A stretch of 64,000 nt of DNA from Nitrososphaerota archaeon (GTDB lineage: Archaea > Thermoproteota > EX4484-205 > JAAOZP01). The notes beneath the pieces are model-generated. The model worked only from the letters and a program-made list of their open reading frames with translations, did no database searches and was not told the origin of the DNA. The position numbers and the translations under genes are program-made. The stretch lies in contig JAAOZP010000014.1 of assembly GCA_011605725.1 (NCBI GenBank), forward strand, positions 76,141 through 140,140, read 5' to 3'. Numbering within the stretch: the stretch's first letter is position 1; each line of letters starts with the position of its first letter. Shown piece after piece: positions 2,399 to 18,524 of this stretch.

Positions 2399-2407
2399 CT
2401 TTAGAAG

Positions 2408-2576
2408 AAAAAGTTAATATAGTAGTGGAGCGGTCTCCGCTGAGGAGGTGTATAGTGCACATGGCCAGCAACGCCCAAAGGGGGCGAGACTACCTGCGTT
2501 GCAGAGACAGCGACACCTCTATCGGAGTCTGCTGAAAAACAATATTGTTTTAAACCTGTTTTAGGAGGGTTTCGTA
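2408..2576 (+). promoter_or_regulatory. leu operon promoter and structured 5' leader
   Basis: A-rich BRE plus TTAATATA (2414-2421); SD AGGAGGTG (2443-2450); motif shared with the ilv leader. Confidence 0.7.
2455..2535 (+). CDS. Putative leader peptide (uORF) MHMASNAQRGRDYLRCRDSDTSIGVC
   Basis: Strong SD 4 nt before GTG; aligns without gaps to the ilv uORF; single Leu at codon 14. Confidence 0.6.
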   Translation: MHMASNAQRGRDYLRCRDSDTSIGVC

Positions 2577-4112
2577 ATGGTTTGGAGAGGATATATTGCT
2601 GAGGCTGAAATACCTGGCAGGGTGATTCTTTTCGACACTACTTTAAGAGATGGTGAACAGACTCCTGGAGTCGCGCTTACGCCCGAGGACAAGCTTAAGA
2701 TAGCGAGACAGCTGGACTTGCTTGGAGTACCCGTATTGGAAGCAGGCTTTCCAGCAGCGTCGCGCGGCGAGGAGGAGGCTATTAAGCAGATAGCTAGAGA
2801 AGGGTTGAACGCGGAGGTCGCTGCCTTATCCAGATGCGTGAAGGAGGATGTTGAGAAGACTGCTTCAACCGGTGCACGGAGAATACATCTTTTCATAGCA
2901 ACCTCAGACATACATTTGAATAAGAAGCTGCAGATAAGCAGGGATGAAGCTGTATGCAGAGCGGTTGAATCCATAGACCTTGCTAAATCCTACGGTATGA
3001 AAATAGAGTTTTCAGCTGAGGATGCGACTCGGACGAGCATCGATTTCCTAGTGGAGTTTTACAGGAGGGTTGAAGAGGCGGGAGCAAGCATAGTCGACAT
3101 TCCTGATACTGTTGGTGTTGCAACACCCTTTGCTATGAGGGAGATTGTTAAGAGGGTTCGCAAAGCCCTGAGGATCCCGGTTGCAGTGCACTGTCACAAC
3201 GACATGGGTCTAGCAGTTGCGAACACGCTTGCAGGCATTGAGGGCGGAGCCTCTGAGGCGCATGTAACAATTAATGGACTTGGGGAGAGAGCAGGCAACG
3301 CGAGCCTAGAGGAGGTGGCGGTTTCCCTGAAAGTATTGTATGGTGTTGAAACAGGCTTAAAGTTTAAAGAGATATACAACACTTGCAGGCTTGTCTCACT
3401 GATAACTGGCGTAGCAATACCTGTGAATAAGCCTATAGTTGGAGAAAACGCTTTCTCCCATGAGAGCGGTATCCATACTCACGGCATACTGGCGTCTCCA
3501 GAGACTTACGAGCCTATAGACCCTGGGTTTGTTGGAGCTAGGAGAAAGCTGGTAGCTGGAAAGCACGCCGGTGTCCACGGGATTTCAGCGCAGCTTGAAG
3601 AAATGGGGTACAGGCTTAGTGAGGAGGAGTTGAAACAGGTTCTTAAAATAGTTAAGGATATTGGCGACAAGGGTAAGAAGGTTACTGACGCGGAACTCGC
3701 CTCGATAGCTGAAAGCGTTATAGGGTACGGGGTCGGTGAGAAGGATCGCATCGAGCTTGAAGAGCTTCTGGTGGTCACTGGGTTAAACACGACGCCGACA
3801 GCAGCAATAAAGATAAGAAGGGGTGAACAGGCTTGGAGAGGAGCGGAGTTCGGAGTGGGGCCGATAGATGCTTCGATGAAGGCAGTCAGCAAGCTTCTTG
3901 GAGACCTGGTTAAGATTAAGCTTGAAAGCTTCAGGTTGGAGGCAATCACGGGAGGCACGGATGCGCTTGCAGAAGTTACGGTCAGGGTTTCAGATGAAGA
4001 AGGGAGGAGTGTGACTGCGAAGGGATTCAGCGAGGACATTGTGCTAGCAGGGGTTTACGCGATATTAAACGGGGCTAACAGGCTTCTGCAGATTAAGAGG
4101 GCTGGTAGATGA
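2577..4112 (+). CDS. leuA: 2-isopropylmalate synthase (LeuA/CimA family)
   Basis: DTTLRDGEQTPG, HCHND, GERAGNA and C-terminal regulatory domain; upstream of leuCD. Confidence 0.85.
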   Translation: MVWRGYIAEAEIPGRVILFDTTLRDGEQTPGVALTPEDKLKIARQLDLLGVPVLEAGFPAASRGEEEAIKQIAREGLNAEVAALSRCVKEDVEKTASTGARRIHLFIATSDIHLNKKLQISRDEAVCRAVESIDLAKSYGMKIEFSAEDATRTSIDFLVEFYRRVEEAGASIVDIPDTVGVATPFAMREIVKRVRKALRIPVAVHCHNDMGLAVANTLAGIEGGASEAHVTINGLGERAGNASLEEVAVSLKVLYGVETGLKFKEIYNTCRLVSLITGVAIPVNKPIVGENAFSHESGIHTHGILASPETYEPIDPGFVGARRKLVAGKHAGVHGISAQLEEMGYRLSEEELKQVLKIVKDIGDKGKKVTDAELASIAESVIGYGVGEKDRIELEELLVVTGLNTTPTAAIKIRRGEQAWRGAEFGVGPIDASMKAVSKLLGDLVKIKLESFRLEAITGGTDALAEVTVRVSDEEGRSVTAKGFSEDIVLAGVYAILNGANRLLQIKRAGR

Positions 4113-5374
4113 CGGGTTTAACAGCAGTACAGAAGGTGCTTTCCAGGAAAACAGGCAGGCCTCGTGTGGAACCTGGTGAAATAGTTGAGGCTAAGGTGGA
4201 TTTCCTAATGTTGCACGAGGTAACTGGGCCACTGGCTGTCGAAGAGTTTGAAAAAATCTCTGGAAAAGTCTGGGACCCAAGTAGGGTGATAGTGGTTTTC
4301 GACCATGATGTTCCGCCGAGCACGATAGACTTAGCCAACCAGATGAGAAGGATGAGAAGCTTCGTTAAGAAACACGGGGTAAACAATTTTTTCGAGATAG
4401 GCAGGGGAGGTATTGCTCATCAAGTTCTCTTCGAAGAAGGCTTCGACATGCCTGGCTTCCTGATAGTCGGCGCGGACAGTCATACTTGCACAGCTGGGGC
4501 GACTGGCGCAGTTGGAATAGGGGTCGGCTCTACTGATGCTGCTGTTGTCCTAGCAACCGGAGAGATATGGTTGAGGGTTCCTGAAACACTGTTGGTTGAG
4601 GTCAAAGGCAGGCTTAGGAAAGGCGTTTTCGCGAAGGATGTTGCTTTAAGTATCGTTGGGAGAATTGGCAGCAATGGAGCAACCTATAAGGCTCTGGAGT
4701 ATTCAGGTGAAACAGTAAGCATGATGTCTCTTTCTGAACGCCTTACTCTTGCAAACCTCTCCGTGGAGACTGGCGCTAAAACCGGGATTGTTCAGACAGA
4801 TTCTAAAAGCATTGAGTATGCTGAGAACTCTGGAAGACGCAGCGAGCTACTGGATGTTAGGAGCGACCCCGACGCGTGCCTGGAGAAAATCGAGATTGAT
4901 GTTTCAAACTTGGAGCCTGTTGTAAGCCTGCCGCATAGCGTGGATAATGTTAAGCCCGTTGCAGAAGTTGAAGGCCTTGAGATAGACCAGGCTTTCCTAG
5001 GTTCCTGCACGAACGGGAGGCTGGACGATCTTCTCGTAGCCTTCAAGATACTTAAGGGGAGAAGGGTCGCGCCGAGCGTGAGGCTGGTGGTTAGCCCGGC
5101 TTCAGTCAAGGTGTATGCGGAGGCTTTGAGAGCAGGAGTCGTCGAGGAGATTGTGCGGGCAGGAGGAATAGTGACAAGCCCAACATGTGGTCCCTGCCTC
5201 GGAATGTCGAGGGGAGTTCTTGCTGAAGGAGAGGTTGCAGTTTCAAGCAGCAACAGGAACTTTATAGGCAGAATGGGTGATAAGAGGAGTAAAGTGTTCC
5301 TCGCTTCCCCGGCGACAGTGGTTGCGTCAGCGGTAGAGGGAAGAATAGCTGATCCAAGGAGGTTTCTGCCTTGA
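4109..5374 (+). CDS. leuC: 3-isopropylmalate dehydratase large subunit
   Basis: DSHTCT, GSCTNGR, CGPCLG and NRNFIGRMG aconitase-family motifs. Confidence 0.92.
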   Translation: MTGLTAVQKVLSRKTGRPRVEPGEIVEAKVDFLMLHEVTGPLAVEEFEKISGKVWDPSRVIVVFDHDVPPSTIDLANQMRRMRSFVKKHGVNNFFEIGRGGIAHQVLFEEGFDMPGFLIVGADSHTCTAGATGAVGIGVGSTDAAVVLATGEIWLRVPETLLVEVKGRLRKGVFAKDVALSIVGRIGSNGATYKALEYSGETVSMMSLSERLTLANLSVETGAKTGIVQTDSKSIEYAENSGRRSELLDVRSDPDACLEKIEIDVSNLEPVVSLPHSVDNVKPVAEVEGLEIDQAFLGSCTNGRLDDLLVAFKILKGRRVAPSVRLVVSPASVKVYAEALRAGVVEEIVRAGGIVTSPTCGPCLGMSRGVLAEGEVAVSSSNRNFIGRMGDKRSKVFLASPATVVASAVEGRIADPRRFLP

Positions 5375-5868
5375 AGATACGCGGTAGGATTATTAGGCTT
5401 GGAGACAACGTGGATACTGACGTGATAATACCTGCAAGATACTTGGTGACTCACGATGCGGAGGTTCTTGCGAAACATGTTTTCGAAGACTATTATCCTG
5501 AATTCAGGGCAAAGGCTTCTGGTGGAGCGATAATAGTTGCCGGAGAGGACTTCGGGCTGGGGAGCTCAAGAGAGCATGCAGTAATAGCTTTGAAACACTC
5601 CGGTGTGAAAGCGATAGTAGCTAAGTCTTTTGCAAGAATCTTCTACAGGAATTCTATCAACCTGGGTCTTCCCGCGCTCGTCTTAAGAAGTAATGAGGGT
5701 TTTGACAAGCTTAAGGATGGGGATGAGGCTGAGCTTGATGTCTCCAACGGGGTTTTGACGATTATCAGAACCGGGGAGAAGTTTTCCTGCGATAAAATGC
5801 CTGAATTCATGATGAAAATAATAGAAGCAGGAGGCTTAATAAACTATTTTTTGAAGAAACACGGATGA
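5371..5868 (+). CDS. leuD: 3-isopropylmalate dehydratase small subunit
   Basis: DNVDTDVIIPARYL, GSSREHA, SFARIFYRN. Confidence 0.93.
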   Translation: MKIRGRIIRLGDNVDTDVIIPARYLVTHDAEVLAKHVFEDYYPEFRAKASGGAIIVAGEDFGLGSSREHAVIALKHSGVKAIVAKSFARIFYRNSINLGLPALVLRSNEGFDKLKDGDEAELDVSNGVLTIIRTGEKFSCDKMPEFMMKIIEAGGLINYFLKKHG

Positions 5869-8994: not shown

Positions 8995-9272
8995 CCCTAA
9001 GCCGGATGAACCTGCAGAAACATGCTAATAAGGGTTACATGAAAAACGGTTTGAAACATTCTGAAGGCTTAAAAGCGATCAGCATTTTACGGGTTTCCCT
9101 AGAGACAAGTGGTGGCGAGCTAAGATTCTACAAGGGTTGAGACGCCTCCGGTAGTCCAGAAGCATGTGAATCACACTCCACGGAAAGCCTTTCCCCCGGT
9201 TTTCTACGCGCGCAAAAAGCAGCGGGCAAAACTTAAAAGGCTCAAAAACAAGTATTTCAAGAGGAACTCGTC

Positions 9273-11421: not shown

Positions 11422-13056
11422 CTAGGTGAAAAACCTGTTTTCCCTCAGCTTAGCTAAAAACCGGCTTTCAAGCCTCTTAGCCGGCGGAACCCATTTCCTC
11501 CTTCTCTCCTCAAGCTCGTCTCTATCGACAAGCAGGTCCAGCCTTCTTTCCGGCACGTCTACAAGTATCTCGTCACCGTCCTCCACGAGCGCTATAGGTC
11601 CCCCCAAGTAGGCCTCTGGGGAAACATGGCCTATGGCAATTCCCTTCGTGCCCCCTGAGAATCTTCCGTCAGTAACCAGCGCAACCCTTTCAACAAGGTT
11701 CCTGCCAACTATTAGCGAGGTCGGCATCAGCATTTCACGCATACCGGGGCCGCCTAGAAGCCCCTCGTAGCGCACGACAACTACAGTGTCCACAGTGAAA
11801 TCCTCTTTCTCAAGCGCTTCAACAGCCTCCTCCTCAGAGTTGAAAACCCTAGCCCTGCCTCTGAACGTTCTAAGCTGAACAGGTGTTCCAGCAAGCTTAA
11901 TCACAGCGCCCTCCGGCGCCAAGGACCCCCATAGCACCGCTATGCCTCCTTCACCTCTATACGGGTTATCCGGAGAACGTATAAGCATGCCCCTTGGATC
12001 TGGAAACTCTTCAACAAGCTCCCGGAGACGCCTACCGGTAACAGTTAAAACATCCAGGTTAAGATATTTTTTAAGAGTCTTCATGAGCGAGGGGACTCCG
12101 CCCGCGTTGTAGAAGTCGATCATGAAGCTCTCGCCGGACGGCCTTATTAGAGCCAGCGTAGGTATCCTTCTGCTCAGCTCGTCGAAGGTCTTTAGAGGAA
12201 GCTCGTACCCAGCCTCCTTGGCTAGAGCGCTCAAGTGGAGAACAGTGTTGGTGGAGCCTCCGAGAGCATTATCAACAATTATAGCGTTAACAATGCTTTC
12301 AGGCTTAACAATATCCTTAAACCTTAAACCCTCCTTCCAGAGTTCCACTATTCGCCTTCCAGACTCGTATGCAAGAGTCTTCTTACCCTCGTCCTCAGCG
12401 TGAGTAGCAGCCATGCCGGGAAGCGATATGCCCATCGCCTCAACCAGGCAAGCCATAGTGTTAGCAGTGAAAAGGCCGGCGCAGCTTCCGGCGCCGGGGC
12501 AAGCAGCCTGTTCAAACTCCCTCAGTTCTTCAAGCGTAATCCTTCCCTCACGGTATTCCCCGAGCGCTTCGAAGACTGAAACCAAGTCAACCCTCCTGCC
12601 TTTGAACAACCCCGGATACATGGGTCCGCCTGTAACGAATATCGACGGAAGATTCAGCCTGGCTGCTGCCAGCAGGTGGCCGGGAACAATCTTGTCGCAT
12701 GAAGATATGAAAACCAGGGCGTCGAACACGTGTGCTGAAACCATTATTTCAACCGAGTCGGCTATGACTTCTCTGCTTGGGAGCGAGAACCTCATTCCAT
12801 CATGGTTCATCGCAATACCGTCGCAGACAGCGATCGTGTTGAAGATGAAAGGCACCCCGCCGCTGTCTCTAACACCCTTGGAAACGTTTTCCGCAAGCAC
12901 GTTGAGGTGAACATGTCCTGGGACAACGTTAGTGAAGGAGTTGACTACACCTATGAAAGGCTTTTCGAAGTCCTGGTTTCTCAAGCCTATGGCGTGAAGC
13001 AGAGACCTGTGCGGAGCCCTGTCCACACCTTTTTTTACAGCGTCGCTCCTCATCAA
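11422..13056 (-). CDS. ilvD: Dihydroxy-acid dehydratase
   Basis: CDGIAM, CDKIVPG, CAGLFTANTM, TDGRFSGGT. Confidence 0.95.
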   Translation of the reverse strand: MMRSDAVKKGVDRAPHRSLLHAIGLRNQDFEKPFIGVVNSFTNVVPGHVHLNVLAENVSKGVRDSGGVPFIFNTIAVCDGIAMNHDGMRFSLPSREVIADSVEIMVSAHVFDALVFISSCDKIVPGHLLAAARLNLPSIFVTGGPMYPGLFKGRRVDLVSVFEALGEYREGRITLEELREFEQAACPGAGSCAGLFTANTMACLVEAMGISLPGMAATHAEDEGKKTLAYESGRRIVELWKEGLRFKDIVKPESIVNAIIVDNALGGSTNTVLHLSALAKEAGYELPLKTFDELSRRIPTLALIRPSGESFMIDFYNAGGVPSLMKTLKKYLNLDVLTVTGRRLRELVEEFPDPRGMLIRSPDNPYRGEGGIAVLWGSLAPEGAVIKLAGTPVQLRTFRGRARVFNSEEEAVEALEKEDFTVDTVVVVRYEGLLGGPGMREMLMPTSLIVGRNLVERVALVTDGRFSGGTKGIAIGHVSPEAYLGGPIALVEDGDEILVDVPERRLDLLVDRDELEERRRKWVPPAKRLESRFLAKLRENRFFT

Positions 13057-13063
13057 GTCTTTT

Positions 13064-14047
13064 TCAACCGTACACCATCGACCTTATTTTCCTTCCAACA
13101 GTCTCTATCAAGTGGTTTCTCTCTCTTTCAACGAGAGTCTTCAGAACAACCTGGTTCGAACTGTTTTCAAGTATCCACTCTCTTGCGAAAACACCTGTCT
13201 GAACATCTTCAAGAAGCTTCCTCATCTTCCTCTTAACATCCTCATCTATAAGATAGGGGCCGCGCGTAAGACCGCCGTACTTAGCAGTATCGCTGACAGC
13301 CTGCCACATGCCGGATAAGCCTTTAGACCAGATCAGGTCGACGATAAGCTTAAGCTCGTTTAAAACTTCGAAGTAAGCCACCTCAGGCTGGTATCCTGCT
13401 TCCACAAGGATTTCGAAGCCGCTTTTAATAAGCGACGAGACTCCGCCGCATAGCACAGCCTGCTCTCCGAAAAGATCTGTCTCAACCTCCTCCTTGAACG
13501 AGGTTTCTATCAAGCCGATCCTGCTTAGCCCCACAGCCTTCCCCAGCTCCCTGACTATTCTTGAAGCATTACCCGTGTAATCCTGGTGGACAGCTATTAA
13601 GCCGGGGACCCCGGTTCCGCGAACATATGCTTCTCTTAAAGCAGGACCAGGCGCCTTGGGAGCCACGAGGACAACGTCGAGCCAGGGAGAAGGAACTATC
13701 TGCCTGTAGTGAATGTTGAAAGCATGCGCGAAAACAAGTGTTGAACCCTTAGAGATGTTCGGCTCAACATGATCCCTGTAGACAGCCGGTTGAGCAGGAT
13801 CAGGAATAAGCATTAGAATAATGCTGCTTTTTCTAACTGCCTCACTTATCTCGTAGACTTCGAAGCCGTCTTCAGAAGCCCTTCTCCAAGACGAGCCTTC
13901 TCTTCTCAAGCCTATTATCGTGTTAACACCGCTGTCTCTAATGTTCTTAGCCTGAGCCTCACCCTGGGAGCCATAGCCTATCACGGCGACAGTCTTATTC
14001 TTAATCAGCTCGATGCTTATTTCATCATCCCTTATTATCCTAGCCAT
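13064..14047 (-). CDS. ilvC: Ketol-acid reductoisomerase
   Basis: IGYGSQG, APKAPG, ETDLFGEQAVLCGG. Confidence 0.95.
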   Translation of the reverse strand: MARIIRDDEISIELIKNKTVAVIGYGSQGEAQAKNIRDSGVNTIIGLRREGSSWRRASEDGFEVYEISEAVRKSSIILMLIPDPAQPAVYRDHVEPNISKGSTLVFAHAFNIHYRQIVPSPWLDVVLVAPKAPGPALREAYVRGTGVPGLIAVHQDYTGNASRIVRELGKAVGLSRIGLIETSFKEEVETDLFGEQAVLCGGVSSLIKSGFEILVEAGYQPEVAYFEVLNELKLIVDLIWSKGLSGMWQAVSDTAKYGGLTRGPYLIDEDVKRKMRKLLEDVQTGVFAREWILENSSNQVVLKTLVERERNHLIETVGRKIRSMVYG

Positions 14048-14091
14048 CCTCAGTCACCCCTACTCCACGGCTACGTTTTCTTTTAAGCTTT

Positions 14092-14580
14092 TTACTTTCT
14101 GAAACGGTTCAAAGTGTGAATCATCACACCGCTCCTCGAGAAGCTTTCAACACGATCTTTAAACTCCTCCTTAAAGTCGTCGACAACCCTAGGGTCGGCG
14201 AGGAGCTCGACGAGAAGCCTGGAGCCGCTCAGCAAGGTTGTTCTAGCCCTATACCTGACCCTGATATAGTCGCTCACACTAGTGTCACAATCCTTCAGCA
14301 CAGCTACGAAAGCCTCCCTTATCACATCGTACTCGAGAGAACCTATCTTAACCTCGAAGACACATGGGTTTTTCTCAAGAACCTTAACTATGTTTTCAAA
14401 TTTCTCCTGAGGCAGGCTGAAGGTTAGAGATATCTCCGAGGTCTTCCCGTTCACCATGCCGACAGTTATCGTGTCAATGTTTATTGCTCTCCTCGCGAAT
14501 ATTGAGGCTATTCTCTCCATCACCCCAGGCATGTTGAGAACCCTGAGCACAACGAACCTCTTATTCTCGTCTGAAGCCAT
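14092..14580 (-). CDS. ilvH: Acetolactate synthase small (ACT) subunit
   Basis: NMPGVMERIASIFARRAINID ACT motif; operon position. Confidence 0.85.
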   Translation of the reverse strand: MASDENKRFVVLRVLNMPGVMERIASIFARRAINIDTITVGMVNGKTSEISLTFSLPQEKFENIVKVLEKNPCVFEVKIGSLEYDVIREAFVAVLKDCDTSVSDYIRVRYRARTTLLSGSRLLVELLADPRVVDDFKEEFKDRVESFSRSGVMIHTLNRFRK

Positions 14581-14588
14581 TTTCCACC

Positions 14589-16262
14589 CTACCTCCTTAC
14601 GATGACTCTGTCAAGCGGGGCAGCCGGGGGAACCATTGGGAAAACATTATCCTCTCTCGCGACAATCACGTCTAACACAGTTGTCTCATCCTGCTTTAAA
14701 GCGGTTTCAAGAGCGTTTTTAAGCTCGCTTATCCTCGTCACTTTAAACCCTTTAGCGCCGAAACCCTCTGAAACCCTAGCTATGTCAGCTCTGCCCTTCA
14801 AATCCACAGCCATATACCTCCTGCCGTAGAAAAGCTCCTGCCACTGTCTAACCATGCCCAGGAAATAATTGTTAAGAACCAAGACTATGATCGGCAGGTT
14901 ATAGTCTACTGAAACCGGAAGCTGGTTACAAGTCATGAAGAAGCTACCGTCTCCAGCTATGTCGAAAACACGGCTCTCCGGGAAGGCTGCTTTAACCCCG
15001 ATCGCAGCCGGAAGCCCGAAGCCCATTGTGCCAAGTCCGCCGGAGGATATGAATTGTCTCGGACGCTTAGCTGTAAAGTGGAGTGAAGCATACATCTGGC
15101 ACTGGCCTACCTCCGTCGTCACAAAGTCTTCAGCCTTAACATAGTCGTTCAGAACCCTTACGGCAGTACTTGGATCAACCGGAACAGCATCGTAATCGTA
15201 AAGGAACTCAGATTCCTTCTTGAGCTGTTTAACTCTTTCACCCCACGTAGCAGCCTTGCCCTTCTTGAAAAGCCTGAGAATCGTTTCGCGAATCCTGATT
15301 AAAACCTGCTTAGCGTCACCGGCGACGCCAAGGTCGGGCTTAAGCAGCTTCCCGATTTCAGACCTATCTATGTCAACATGTATCTTCCTCGCTCCCGGGG
15401 CGAAGCCGCTTAACTTACCAGTAGTCCTGTCGCTAAACCTCATGCCTACTGCAAGAATCAGGTCGCTCTCCTGAACAGCCTTGATCGCGCCTAGCTTCCC
15501 ATGCATTCCAACCATGCCTAGGGACAACGGATGGTCTTCAGGAATGCTTCCCTTGCCCATTAGAGTCGTCGCTACGGGAGCGTTTAGAAGCTCAGCAAGG
15601 GCGATAAGCTCGCTGGACGCGCCTGATATTATTACTCCGCCTCCAGCTATGATCACAGGCCTCTCAGCCTCAACCAGCATCTTTGAGACTGTTAGAATCT
15701 CCTCGTCGGAGGGAGAGGGAGGAGTATAAGAGTAGATGTAGAAATCGTCATCAGGCTCGCCCTCCATCAGCTGAACATCCCTAGGGACGTCGATGTGAAC
15801 AGGCCCAGGTCTTCCGGATAAGGCTATTTTAAAAGCGTTCTCAAGCGCAGAGTTAAGCTCGTTTAAGTCTCTAGGTAGAAAGTTCATCTTCGTCAACCCT
15901 ATCATCATCGAGAAAACATTAGCCTCCTGAAAACCGTCGTAACCTATGAGAGGCGTCGCAACCTGGCCGGCTATGCTTAAAACCGGCGAGGAATCCAAGT
16001 AGGCGTTGGCAATTCCTGTTGCAAGATTAGTGGCGCCAGGGCCGGATGTGGCGACGACAACGCCAATCCTGCCGGTTGCCCTAGCATACCCGTCAGCCAT
16101 GTGGGCAGCACCCTGCTCATGCCTCGCGAGAATGAACTCTATGTCGCCAGCCTTATAAAGCTCGTCTAGAAACGGGAGCACAGCCCCACCGGGTACTCCG
16201 AAGATGGTTTTAACCCCGTTCTCCCTCAGCTTCTCAACTAGTAGTCTAGACCCTGAAACCAT
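14589..16262 (-). CDS. ilvB: Acetolactate synthase large subunit
   Basis: RHEQGAAHMADGYAR, TSGPGATN, GDGSF...NN ThDP motif; ATG at 16262 follows a GAGGTG SD. Confidence 0.95.
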   Translation of the reverse strand: MVSGSRLLVEKLRENGVKTIFGVPGGAVLPFLDELYKAGDIEFILARHEQGAAHMADGYARATGRIGVVVATSGPGATNLATGIANAYLDSSPVLSIAGQVATPLIGYDGFQEANVFSMMIGLTKMNFLPRDLNELNSALENAFKIALSGRPGPVHIDVPRDVQLMEGEPDDDFYIYSYTPPSPSDEEILTVSKMLVEAERPVIIAGGGVIISGASSELIALAELLNAPVATTLMGKGSIPEDHPLSLGMVGMHGKLGAIKAVQESDLILAVGMRFSDRTTGKLSGFAPGARKIHVDIDRSEIGKLLKPDLGVAGDAKQVLIRIRETILRLFKKGKAATWGERVKQLKKESEFLYDYDAVPVDPSTAVRVLNDYVKAEDFVTTEVGQCQMYASLHFTAKRPRQFISSGGLGTMGFGLPAAIGVKAAFPESRVFDIAGDGSFFMTCNQLPVSVDYNLPIIVLVLNNYFLGMVRQWQELFYGRRYMAVDLKGRADIARVSEGFGAKGFKVTRISELKNALETALKQDETTVLDVIVAREDNVFPMVPPAAPLDRVIVRR

Positions 16263-16443
16263 TTGAAACACCTCTTGCAAACGGCTTTTTGAAAACCACT
16301 GTTTTCTCTAGCGGAGGCTGGGTTTGCAGCGGGACTCCTGCAGTTGGTGGACGGTGTCCCGCCCCCTTGGAGCGTGAATATTATGGTACACTCAGCGCAC
16401 CTCCTAAGCAGTGTGCCCATTGAGAGGCCTATATTAATCTTTC
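16263..16443 (-). promoter_or_regulatory. ilv operon promoter and structured 5' leader
   Basis: GAAAGA-TTAATATA (TATA at 16437-16430); motif shared with the leu leader. Confidence 0.7.
16308..16391 (-). CDS. Putative leader peptide (uORF) MYHNIHAPRGRDTVHQLQESRCKPSLR
   Basis: SD AGGAGGTG (16405-16398) 6 nt before GTG; aligns to the leu uORF; single internal Val at codon 14. Confidence 0.6.
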   Translation of the reverse strand: MYHNIHAPRGRDTVHQLQESRCKPSLR

Positions 16444-18449: not shown

Positions 18450-18524
18450 GCGGCGCTGGTCTAACCTGGTTATGACACCAGCCCCCCAAGCTGGGAACTC
18501 CGGGTTCAAATCCCGGGCGCCGCA
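18450..18524 (+). tRNA. tRNA-Gly(CCC), atypical C33 and A15-U48
   Basis: Near-identical to tRNA-Gly(TCC); anticodon loop CCCCCAA; same promoter motif AAAACTTTTATTAACC. Confidence 0.92.

Follow-up and report, generated by a model that had tools for sequence, protein, structure and literature searches.

The leuA and ilvB operons of this Candidatus Brockarchaeota archaeon from a hot spring are each preceded by a short upstream open reading frame (uORF) in a leader that is very probably a translated amino-acid sensor of some kind. Our best model, held with moderate confidence, is that a shortage of the amino acid makes the ribosome shift into the +1 frame, in which it crosses the spacer to reach the gene. 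Both leaders lie in the window, by which we mean the whole 64,000-nt stretch of DNA analysed; the proteins in Ca. Brockarchaeota records are 82–95% identical to its LeuA.

Two leaders with a shared layout

The first operon presumed to be regulated is leuA-leuC-leuD (2577..5868, + strand, with the leuA ATG at 2577) and the second is ilvB-ilvN-ilvC-ilvD (11422..16262, − strand, with the ilvB start at 16262). The assignments of leuA, leuC, leuD, ilvB, ilvC and ilvD come from NCBIfam, and ilvN was called from its position and appearance only. The leu operon of the window (2577-5868) lacks leuB; two isopropylmalate/isocitrate dehydrogenase homologues are encoded on another contig of the host genome (G000:C4:15520 and C4:133836), without a leader of the leu/ilv type. 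Two nearly identical tRNA-Gly genes, with anticodons TCC and CCC, are found at 1321-1395, just 5′ of the leu region, and at 18450-18524.

An earlier note on this DNA had described a TATA-like run, a Shine-Dalgarno (SD) sequence, a GTG-started uORF and a 41-nt gap upstream of leuA, and all of these are where it placed them. A BRE-like purine run and TATA box occupy 2407..2421 (+), and the TATA-like TTAATATA at 2414-2421 (+) has counterparts 22–27 nt 5′ of the first SD sequence, SD1, in 32/32 leaders of the genus. Transcription of the leu operon presumably starts ~23 nt 3′ of the TATA box, at SD1. The latter, AGGAGGTG (2443..2450, +), has a core that is invariant in 32/32 leaders, is predicted to form a duplex of about −14 kcal/mol with the anti-SD of the host 16S tail, and would serve as the ribosome-binding site of the uORF. 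That uORF (2455..2535, +) has 26 codons, a GTG start and an alternative in-frame ATG at 2461-2463. It contains an SD-like box formed by codons R9-G10-R11 (2479..2487, +), recognised by its anti-SD pairing and geometry, then a CTG (Leu) control codon at codon 14 (2494..2496, +) and, near its end, an anti-SD mimic (2513..2520, +) that in an RNAalifold consensus can have either SD1 (8 bp) or the leuA SD as its pairing partner. Beyond the stop come an A/U-rich spacer (2536..2562, +) with a weak A-tract/U-tract hairpin and two U4 tracts, a possible target of FttA/aCPSF1, and then SD3 (2563..2568, +), the leuA ribosome-binding site.

The same layout does precede ilvB on the − strand, as the note had also claimed: a TATA box and SD1 (16398..16437), a uORF of 27 codons (16308..16391) ending 45 nt before the ilvB start, an internal SD (16367-16359) and the GTC (Val) control codon (16352-16350). 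The ilv uORF holds, in addition to this Val codon, an invariant Leu CTG at codon 17 (16343-16341).

The leu GTG lies only 4 nt past SD1 because of a 2-nt deletion. The GTG at codon 1 is lost in 7 close relatives, and all 7 have ATG at codon 3. Given this turnover of start codons, "codon 14" is better defined as the position five codons past the first Arg.

The combination of SD and core motif occurs twice in the 2.2-Mb host genome, versus 0.005 expected copies, and is present in every genome of the genus (17/17) but in none of the others searched (0/44), with reversed-pattern controls giving zero. Pattern searches of the host genome found no third copy of the core motif, and inspection found no such leader 5′ of leuB-like, ilvE, ileS, valS, leuS or trpE genes, nor 5′ of his, thr, arg/lys or cys genes. 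A pattern scan of metagenomes for the core motif returned mostly chance matches, plus a few extra members of the genus. An Arg-rich uORF before argH (9165-9079, −) was rejected as a candidate because it is specific to the host genome, with no conservation in 15 relatives; upstream of argH (window 9079-9180, −), these carry instead a conserved TATA-like run and a short motif near the argH start.

For the orthologue comparison we used 16 leu and 16 ilv leaders of the genus (32 in total). The uORF is kept before leuA in 16/16 and before ilvB in 16/16, with its frame open for at least 20 codons, and stops are frequent just 5′ of its start codon. The control position holds CTG in every leu leader (16/16) and GTC in every ilv leader (16/16), confirming that it tracks the pathway; a uORF with such an end-product codon, here a single invariant Leu or Val, is a trait of classical attenuators. 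In the 16 leu leaders this CTG is the sole fully invariant codon outside the SD-like box. The description of it as the only Leu codon holds for the window copy, but 7/16 homologues have further Leu codons. The only indel within the leu uORFs is of 6 nt and keeps the frame, and the leu stop interchanges among TGA, TAG and TAA at one position. Simulation along the tree gave P = 0.03 (leu) and P = 0.29 (ilv) for the frame being kept open, and no overall coding signature of the uORF was found in the orthologue alignment. From these features of the sequences, the uORFs are probably translated.

Constraint at the nucleotide level, and control codons that can join short hairpins, would also suit an untranslated RNA element or protein-binding site in which the ORF is incidental, comparable to the actinobacterial LEU element of Seliverstov et al.; control-codon mutations in Streptomyces behaved unlike classical attenuation (PMC1262725). 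We nevertheless consider this very unlikely here, given a perfect SD and a start at fixed distance, the turnover of starts and stops, the frame-keeping indels, Leu and Val codons that track the pathway, a +1 frame that is open in two lineages, and the lack of an Rfam match. It is scarcely credible that the leaders have no regulatory role and are a duplicated promoter and leader conserved for basal expression: the two copies are indeed similar and, at the sequence level, confined to one genus, but the invariant codon is Leu in one lineage of leaders and Val in the other, a parallel layout exists in Bathyarchaeia, and conservation of the leaders exceeds that of synonymous sites in the genes.

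The host genome has a third leader of a different kind (G000:C19, about 99070-99160, +; loci L292-L305 and L306). Its leaderless uORF of 27–31 codons ends in a Phe/Tyr(/Trp) run, with 3–6 aromatic codons in the last 8 and at most one elsewhere, and precedes the complete aromatic operon, ask-asd-ADH synthase-DHQ synthase II-aroE-aroK-aroA-aroC-pheA. It is kept in 14/14 genomes and has a strong central hairpin that includes an anti-SD; its shifted frames are not conserved. It resembles attenuators of the poly-Cys type, here for aromatic amino acids, and its conservation shows control-codon leaders to be a retained feature of this lineage. About 30–50 nt 5′ of the TATA box of the aromatic operon (L292-L305) lies a highly conserved 16-nt motif, which comprises a second TATA-like run and then a fixed stretch and may be another promoter or the binding site of a factor.

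A probable internal SD in the RGR codons

The earlier note had read R-G-R-D as an arrest-like peptide and had pointed to synonymous third-position changes between the two window copies. Those changes are present between the copies, but among the orthologues there is zero synonymous change at R9, G10 or the control codons. By comparison, the conserved G/R/L/V/A codons of leuA and ilvB are codon-invariant in only 8/285 columns. The spelling AGG GGG CGA is the strongest anti-SD partner among the 144 possible R-G-R spellings (−11.1 versus a median of −6.9 kcal/mol), and its pairing falls within the top 0.6% of coding windows. Only two single changes would bind better: one creates a stop, and the other is the Gly-to-Arg variant seen in one relative (L125), the only non-synonymous change observed in the RGR box. 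With the control codon placed in the A site, the 9-nt anti-SD helix would end 3 nt before the P-site codon, codon 13. In prfB, where variation between GG_GGG and GG_AGG has been used to argue for an internal SD, the +1 shift requires a 3-nt spacing (PMC5009743). As the constraint on the box is on its nucleotides and no synonymous spelling pairs better with the anti-SD, it appears to act as an internal SD; on this sequence evidence the RGR motif is mainly an internal SD, and the acidic residue may keep a peptide role.

The pattern expected for nascent-peptide arrest of the TnaC or SpeFL type, namely conserved amino acids with free synonymous sites, was not found, with D12 as a partial exception. 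We regard it as quite improbable that nascent R-G-R-D serves as an arrest motif and stalls the ribosome in concert with the control codon. In favour of this reading, halobacterial leaders also contain G-R-[DE]-x-L, spelled there in unrelated, non-SD codons; the codon of D12 changes synonymously, and Brockarchaeota, Bathyarchaeia and Halobacteria alike have an acidic residue 2–3 codons before Leu. Besides the frozen R9 and G10 codons of the 32 leaders, however, rare CGA/CGG Arg codons (3–5% usage) are kept, a Gly-to-Arg variant is tolerated, the position of the Asp differs among lineages, and an overall coding signature is lacking.

The +1 frame across the spacer

The +1 frame that begins at the leu control codon forms an ORF of 35 codons (2495..2602, +) that crosses the spacer. 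None of the 16 leu leaders has a stop in this frame before the leuA start; it closes 23 nt into leuA, and in one leader at a TAATG stop/start overlap. The −1 frame is closed in 16/16. The corresponding ilv ORF (16238..16351, −) runs over the ilvB start (16262), and in 16/16 leaders this frame is stop-free to within 6 nt of that start, ending at −6 to +34 relative to it; there the −1 frame is also open, and the phase of the spacer is not kept. Three null models gave P = 0.0007, 0.014 and 0.039 for the openness of the leu +1 frame and P = 0.016, 0.045 and 0.008 for ilv, values to be read as post hoc since the tests were devised with the data already in view and the related genomes are non-independent. 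Indels past the leu control codon are of 3, 3, 6 and 9 nt, plus the one 1-nt change that gives the TAATG overlap. The conserved open +1 frame points to frameshifting rather than simple stalling.

The leuA frame itself is closed at 5 or more codons 5′ of the ATG, and the +1 ORF extends over the start in a frame other than that of leuA. Since the +1 frame is not the gene frame, no fusion protein would be made, and fusion of the uORF with LeuA or IlvB by a single shift was rejected. We also rejected bypass to a matched landing codon, as no landing site is conserved, and +1-frame initiation from the internal SD, for which there is no start codon. The point of entry into the +1 frame is bounded between codon 8 and the uORF stop. 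Re-pairing of the P-site tRNA after a +1 shift, as in prfB, is poor in this genus: most leaders have TAC_C or ACC_G, where the moves from TAC to ACC and from ACC to CCG keep 1/3 pairs, and the P-site codons AAC, AAT and CCC keep 2/3. One guess is that the stronger internal SD offsets this poor re-pairing.

In the model that we favour, the mRNA would start at SD1, and ribosomes would translate the uORF, as its conservation suggests. With ample charged tRNA-Leu (tRNA-Val for ilv), the control codon would be read and the ribosome would stop 32–57 nt before the gene; the untranslated spacer would then keep expression low, through FttA/aCPSF1 termination at the U tracts or through poor de novo initiation. 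With the amino acid in short supply, the ribosome would wait with the control codon in its A site. The internal SD would pair with the 16S tail at the prfB-like distance of 3 nt behind the P-site codon, and a fraction of the waiting ribosomes would slip +1. Because the +1 frame is stop-free to the gene start, a shifted ribosome would cross the spacer and end on or just past that start. The output would be an RNA polymerase kept coupled past U-rich FttA sites, handover to the gene by termination-reinitiation, or both. FttA prefers U-rich RNA (PMC11616081), and termination-reinitiation is documented in archaea (PMC6728339).

A stall without a frameshift, in the style of classical attenuation, is an explanation that we regard as unlikely. 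Here the internal SD would do no more than clamp the ribosome while it waits. A ribosome that has reached the uORF stop would cover the A-rich strand and expose the U tract to FttA/aCPSF1, and a stalled ribosome would leave the U tract paired, or else the anti-SD mimic would switch between SD1 and the gene SD. Consistent with this, the helix between SD1 and the mimic is conserved in both leaders (the leu mimic is 97.7% paired), a U4 tract is present in the spacer of 28/32 leaders versus 56/142 background gaps and is often 11–13 nt past the uORF stop, FttA prefers U-rich RNA, P-site re-pairing is poor, and leaders with codon runs exist before the host aromatic operon and Bathyarchaeia ilvB. Against it, the SD1:mimic helix has no two-sided covariation, the opening energy of the gene SD has no dependence on ribosome position, masking of the U tract is worth 1–1.5 kcal/mol at 37 °C, falling to about 0.3 at 65 °C, a value close to background, and the open +1 frame goes unexplained. 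A classical terminator/antiterminator is thus unsupported, as is an SD-sequestration switch. Opening of the leuA SD costs about 4.5 kcal/mol at 37 °C, with variation, and this SD does not appear to be strongly sequestered, which leaves the OFF state unaccounted for by the frameshift model.

Stalled ribosomes can also act as 5′ roadblocks that stabilise mRNA, as at ermC and STAB-SD in Bacillus. An SD-clamped ribosome that stabilises the operon mRNA in this way during starvation would give the right regulatory sign and, needing no RNA switch, fits the position-independent opening of the SD; it would not explain the open +1 frame or the phase-keeping indels, and we give it a very slim chance. Neither leader has a run of control codons (one in leu, two in ilv, 3 apart). 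The suggested Rfam search yielded no family match in the window, RF03001 included, and a T-box riboswitch was rejected, with no match at gathering or at E ≤ 10 and no conserved UGGN in the alignments.

Leaders in other archaea and known systems

The clearest examples of the proposed switch, as judged from sequence, are in one order of Bathyarchaeia, an independent lineage. There, 14/26 leuA loci (L334, L335, L348-L354, L356-L358, L363 and L364) have a uORF with an SD-like box, and all 14 have an Arg codon and, five codons later, a CTY codon for Leu, a motif that we defined after inspection. The codon before CTY is mostly GTT or TTT, which re-pairs on TTC after a +1 shift. In 14/14 the +1 frame reaches the gene start (−14 to +44) without a stop, and the −1 frame does so in 2/14; the spacers are divergent and up to about 200 nt long, and single-sequence shuffles gave P = 0.03–0.38 each. 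As a control, the +1 frame is open in 3/25 of the run-type ilvB leaders of the same order. Most ilvB genes of this order (L375-L399) have such a classical-looking uORF, ending in a Val/Ile/Leu run, with the gene start 63–78 nt on and often a hairpin directly past the stop. A phylum-wide scan with the Bathyarchaeia site pattern gave results near those of the reversed control. At another locus (L106, in genome G034), a short SD-led uORF with three consecutive Leu codons precedes leuA, and neither shifted frame meets a stop before the leuA start.

Comparison with the leuA-Halobacteria RNA motif (RF03001), which the earlier note had recommended, gave no covariance-model match in the host genome, although the control Haloferax matched; the kinship lies in a hidden uORF and an open +1 frame. 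All 11 RF03001 matches in 10 genomes (L307-L317) overlap a leaderless uORF ending G-R-E-I-x. As in the host leaders, this uORF lies 5′ of an archaeal leuA and has G-R-acidic-x-Leu with the +1 frame open behind the Leu, although in 3/11 halobacterial leaders Arg and not Leu occupies the control position after E-I. Unlike the host uORFs, it is leaderless, has no strong internal SD and is continued in +1 by LeuA itself: the +1 frame enters LeuA in 9 loci and a gene of 146–149 codons in 2. Most of these 9 have no usable start codon before the conserved N-terminal motif of LeuA. Pfeiffer and Dyall-Smith noted that the start of Haloferax leuA2 is missing and speculated about slippage under leucine shortage (PMC8305020). 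We did not find G-R-[DE]-x-[LVI] leaders before more distant leuA paralogues of methanogens and others. The P-site tRNA can re-pair after the shift in both Bathyarchaeia and Halobacteria, unlike in the host genus.

The prfB (RF2) +1 frameshift resembles the leu and ilv leaders in its short zero-frame ORF, its slow A-site sensor codon, and an internal SD (GG_GGG/GG_AGG) about 3 nt from the P-site codon with a G-poor 5′ flank (PMC5009743). It differs in that its sensor is UGA and not a sense codon for the pathway product; moreover, the archaeal genus has no CUU_U-type shift site, and its +1 frame is not the gene. By analogy, the nearest working counterpart of the proposed switch is the ketolide-induced frameshifting of ermCL, in which a shift in the leader ORF leads to translation of the spacer and turns on a separately initiated gene (PMC5009743). 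Likewise, in both the host genus and Bathyarchaeia the shifted frame spans the spacer as far as the ribosome-binding site of the gene. The ermCL trigger is, however, a drug and not a hungry codon, and ermC has a strong SD-sequestering structure that we did not find in the leu/ilv leaders.

In enterobacteria, the leu and ilvBN leader-peptide attenuators consist of a uORF with cognate codons before branched-chain amino-acid operons. The host leaders share this arrangement with them, down to the presence of both Val and Leu in the ilv leader, and with the actinobacterial LEU element (PMC1262725); they differ from both in having one control codon, no intrinsic terminator/antiterminator, an internal SD and an open +1 frame. 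Mycobacterial poly-Cys attenuators, which are leaderless sORFs, likewise place ribosome-read amino-acid sensing ahead of an operon, but rely on a C-terminal codon run and on a stable duplex that covers the downstream SD (10.1101/834739), neither of which is present in the leu/ilv leaders. Each part thus has a bacterial precedent (prfB, ermCL, leader peptides); the literature searched yielded neither their combination into an amino-acid sensor of one codon nor any experimentally described ribosome-read amino-acid sensor in archaea.

We put at about an even chance the broader proposal that Brockarchaeota, Bathyarchaeia and Halobacteria all sense leucine by a +1 frameshift at a single hungry codon, with a Val codon serving for ilv. 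In halophiles the +1 frame is that of LeuA and the shift would produce a LeuA fusion; in Brockarchaeota and Bathyarchaeia it would bridge the spacer to a separately initiated gene, coupling transcription or reinitiation. If true, programmed frameshifting would measure the supply of aminoacyl-tRNA with a single codon, the orphan leuA-Halobacteria motif would gain a mechanism, and the published puzzle of the missing start of haloarchaeal leuA2 would be explained. The finding also bears on the question of whether archaeal operons are regulated by internal SD pairing and transcription-translation coupling.
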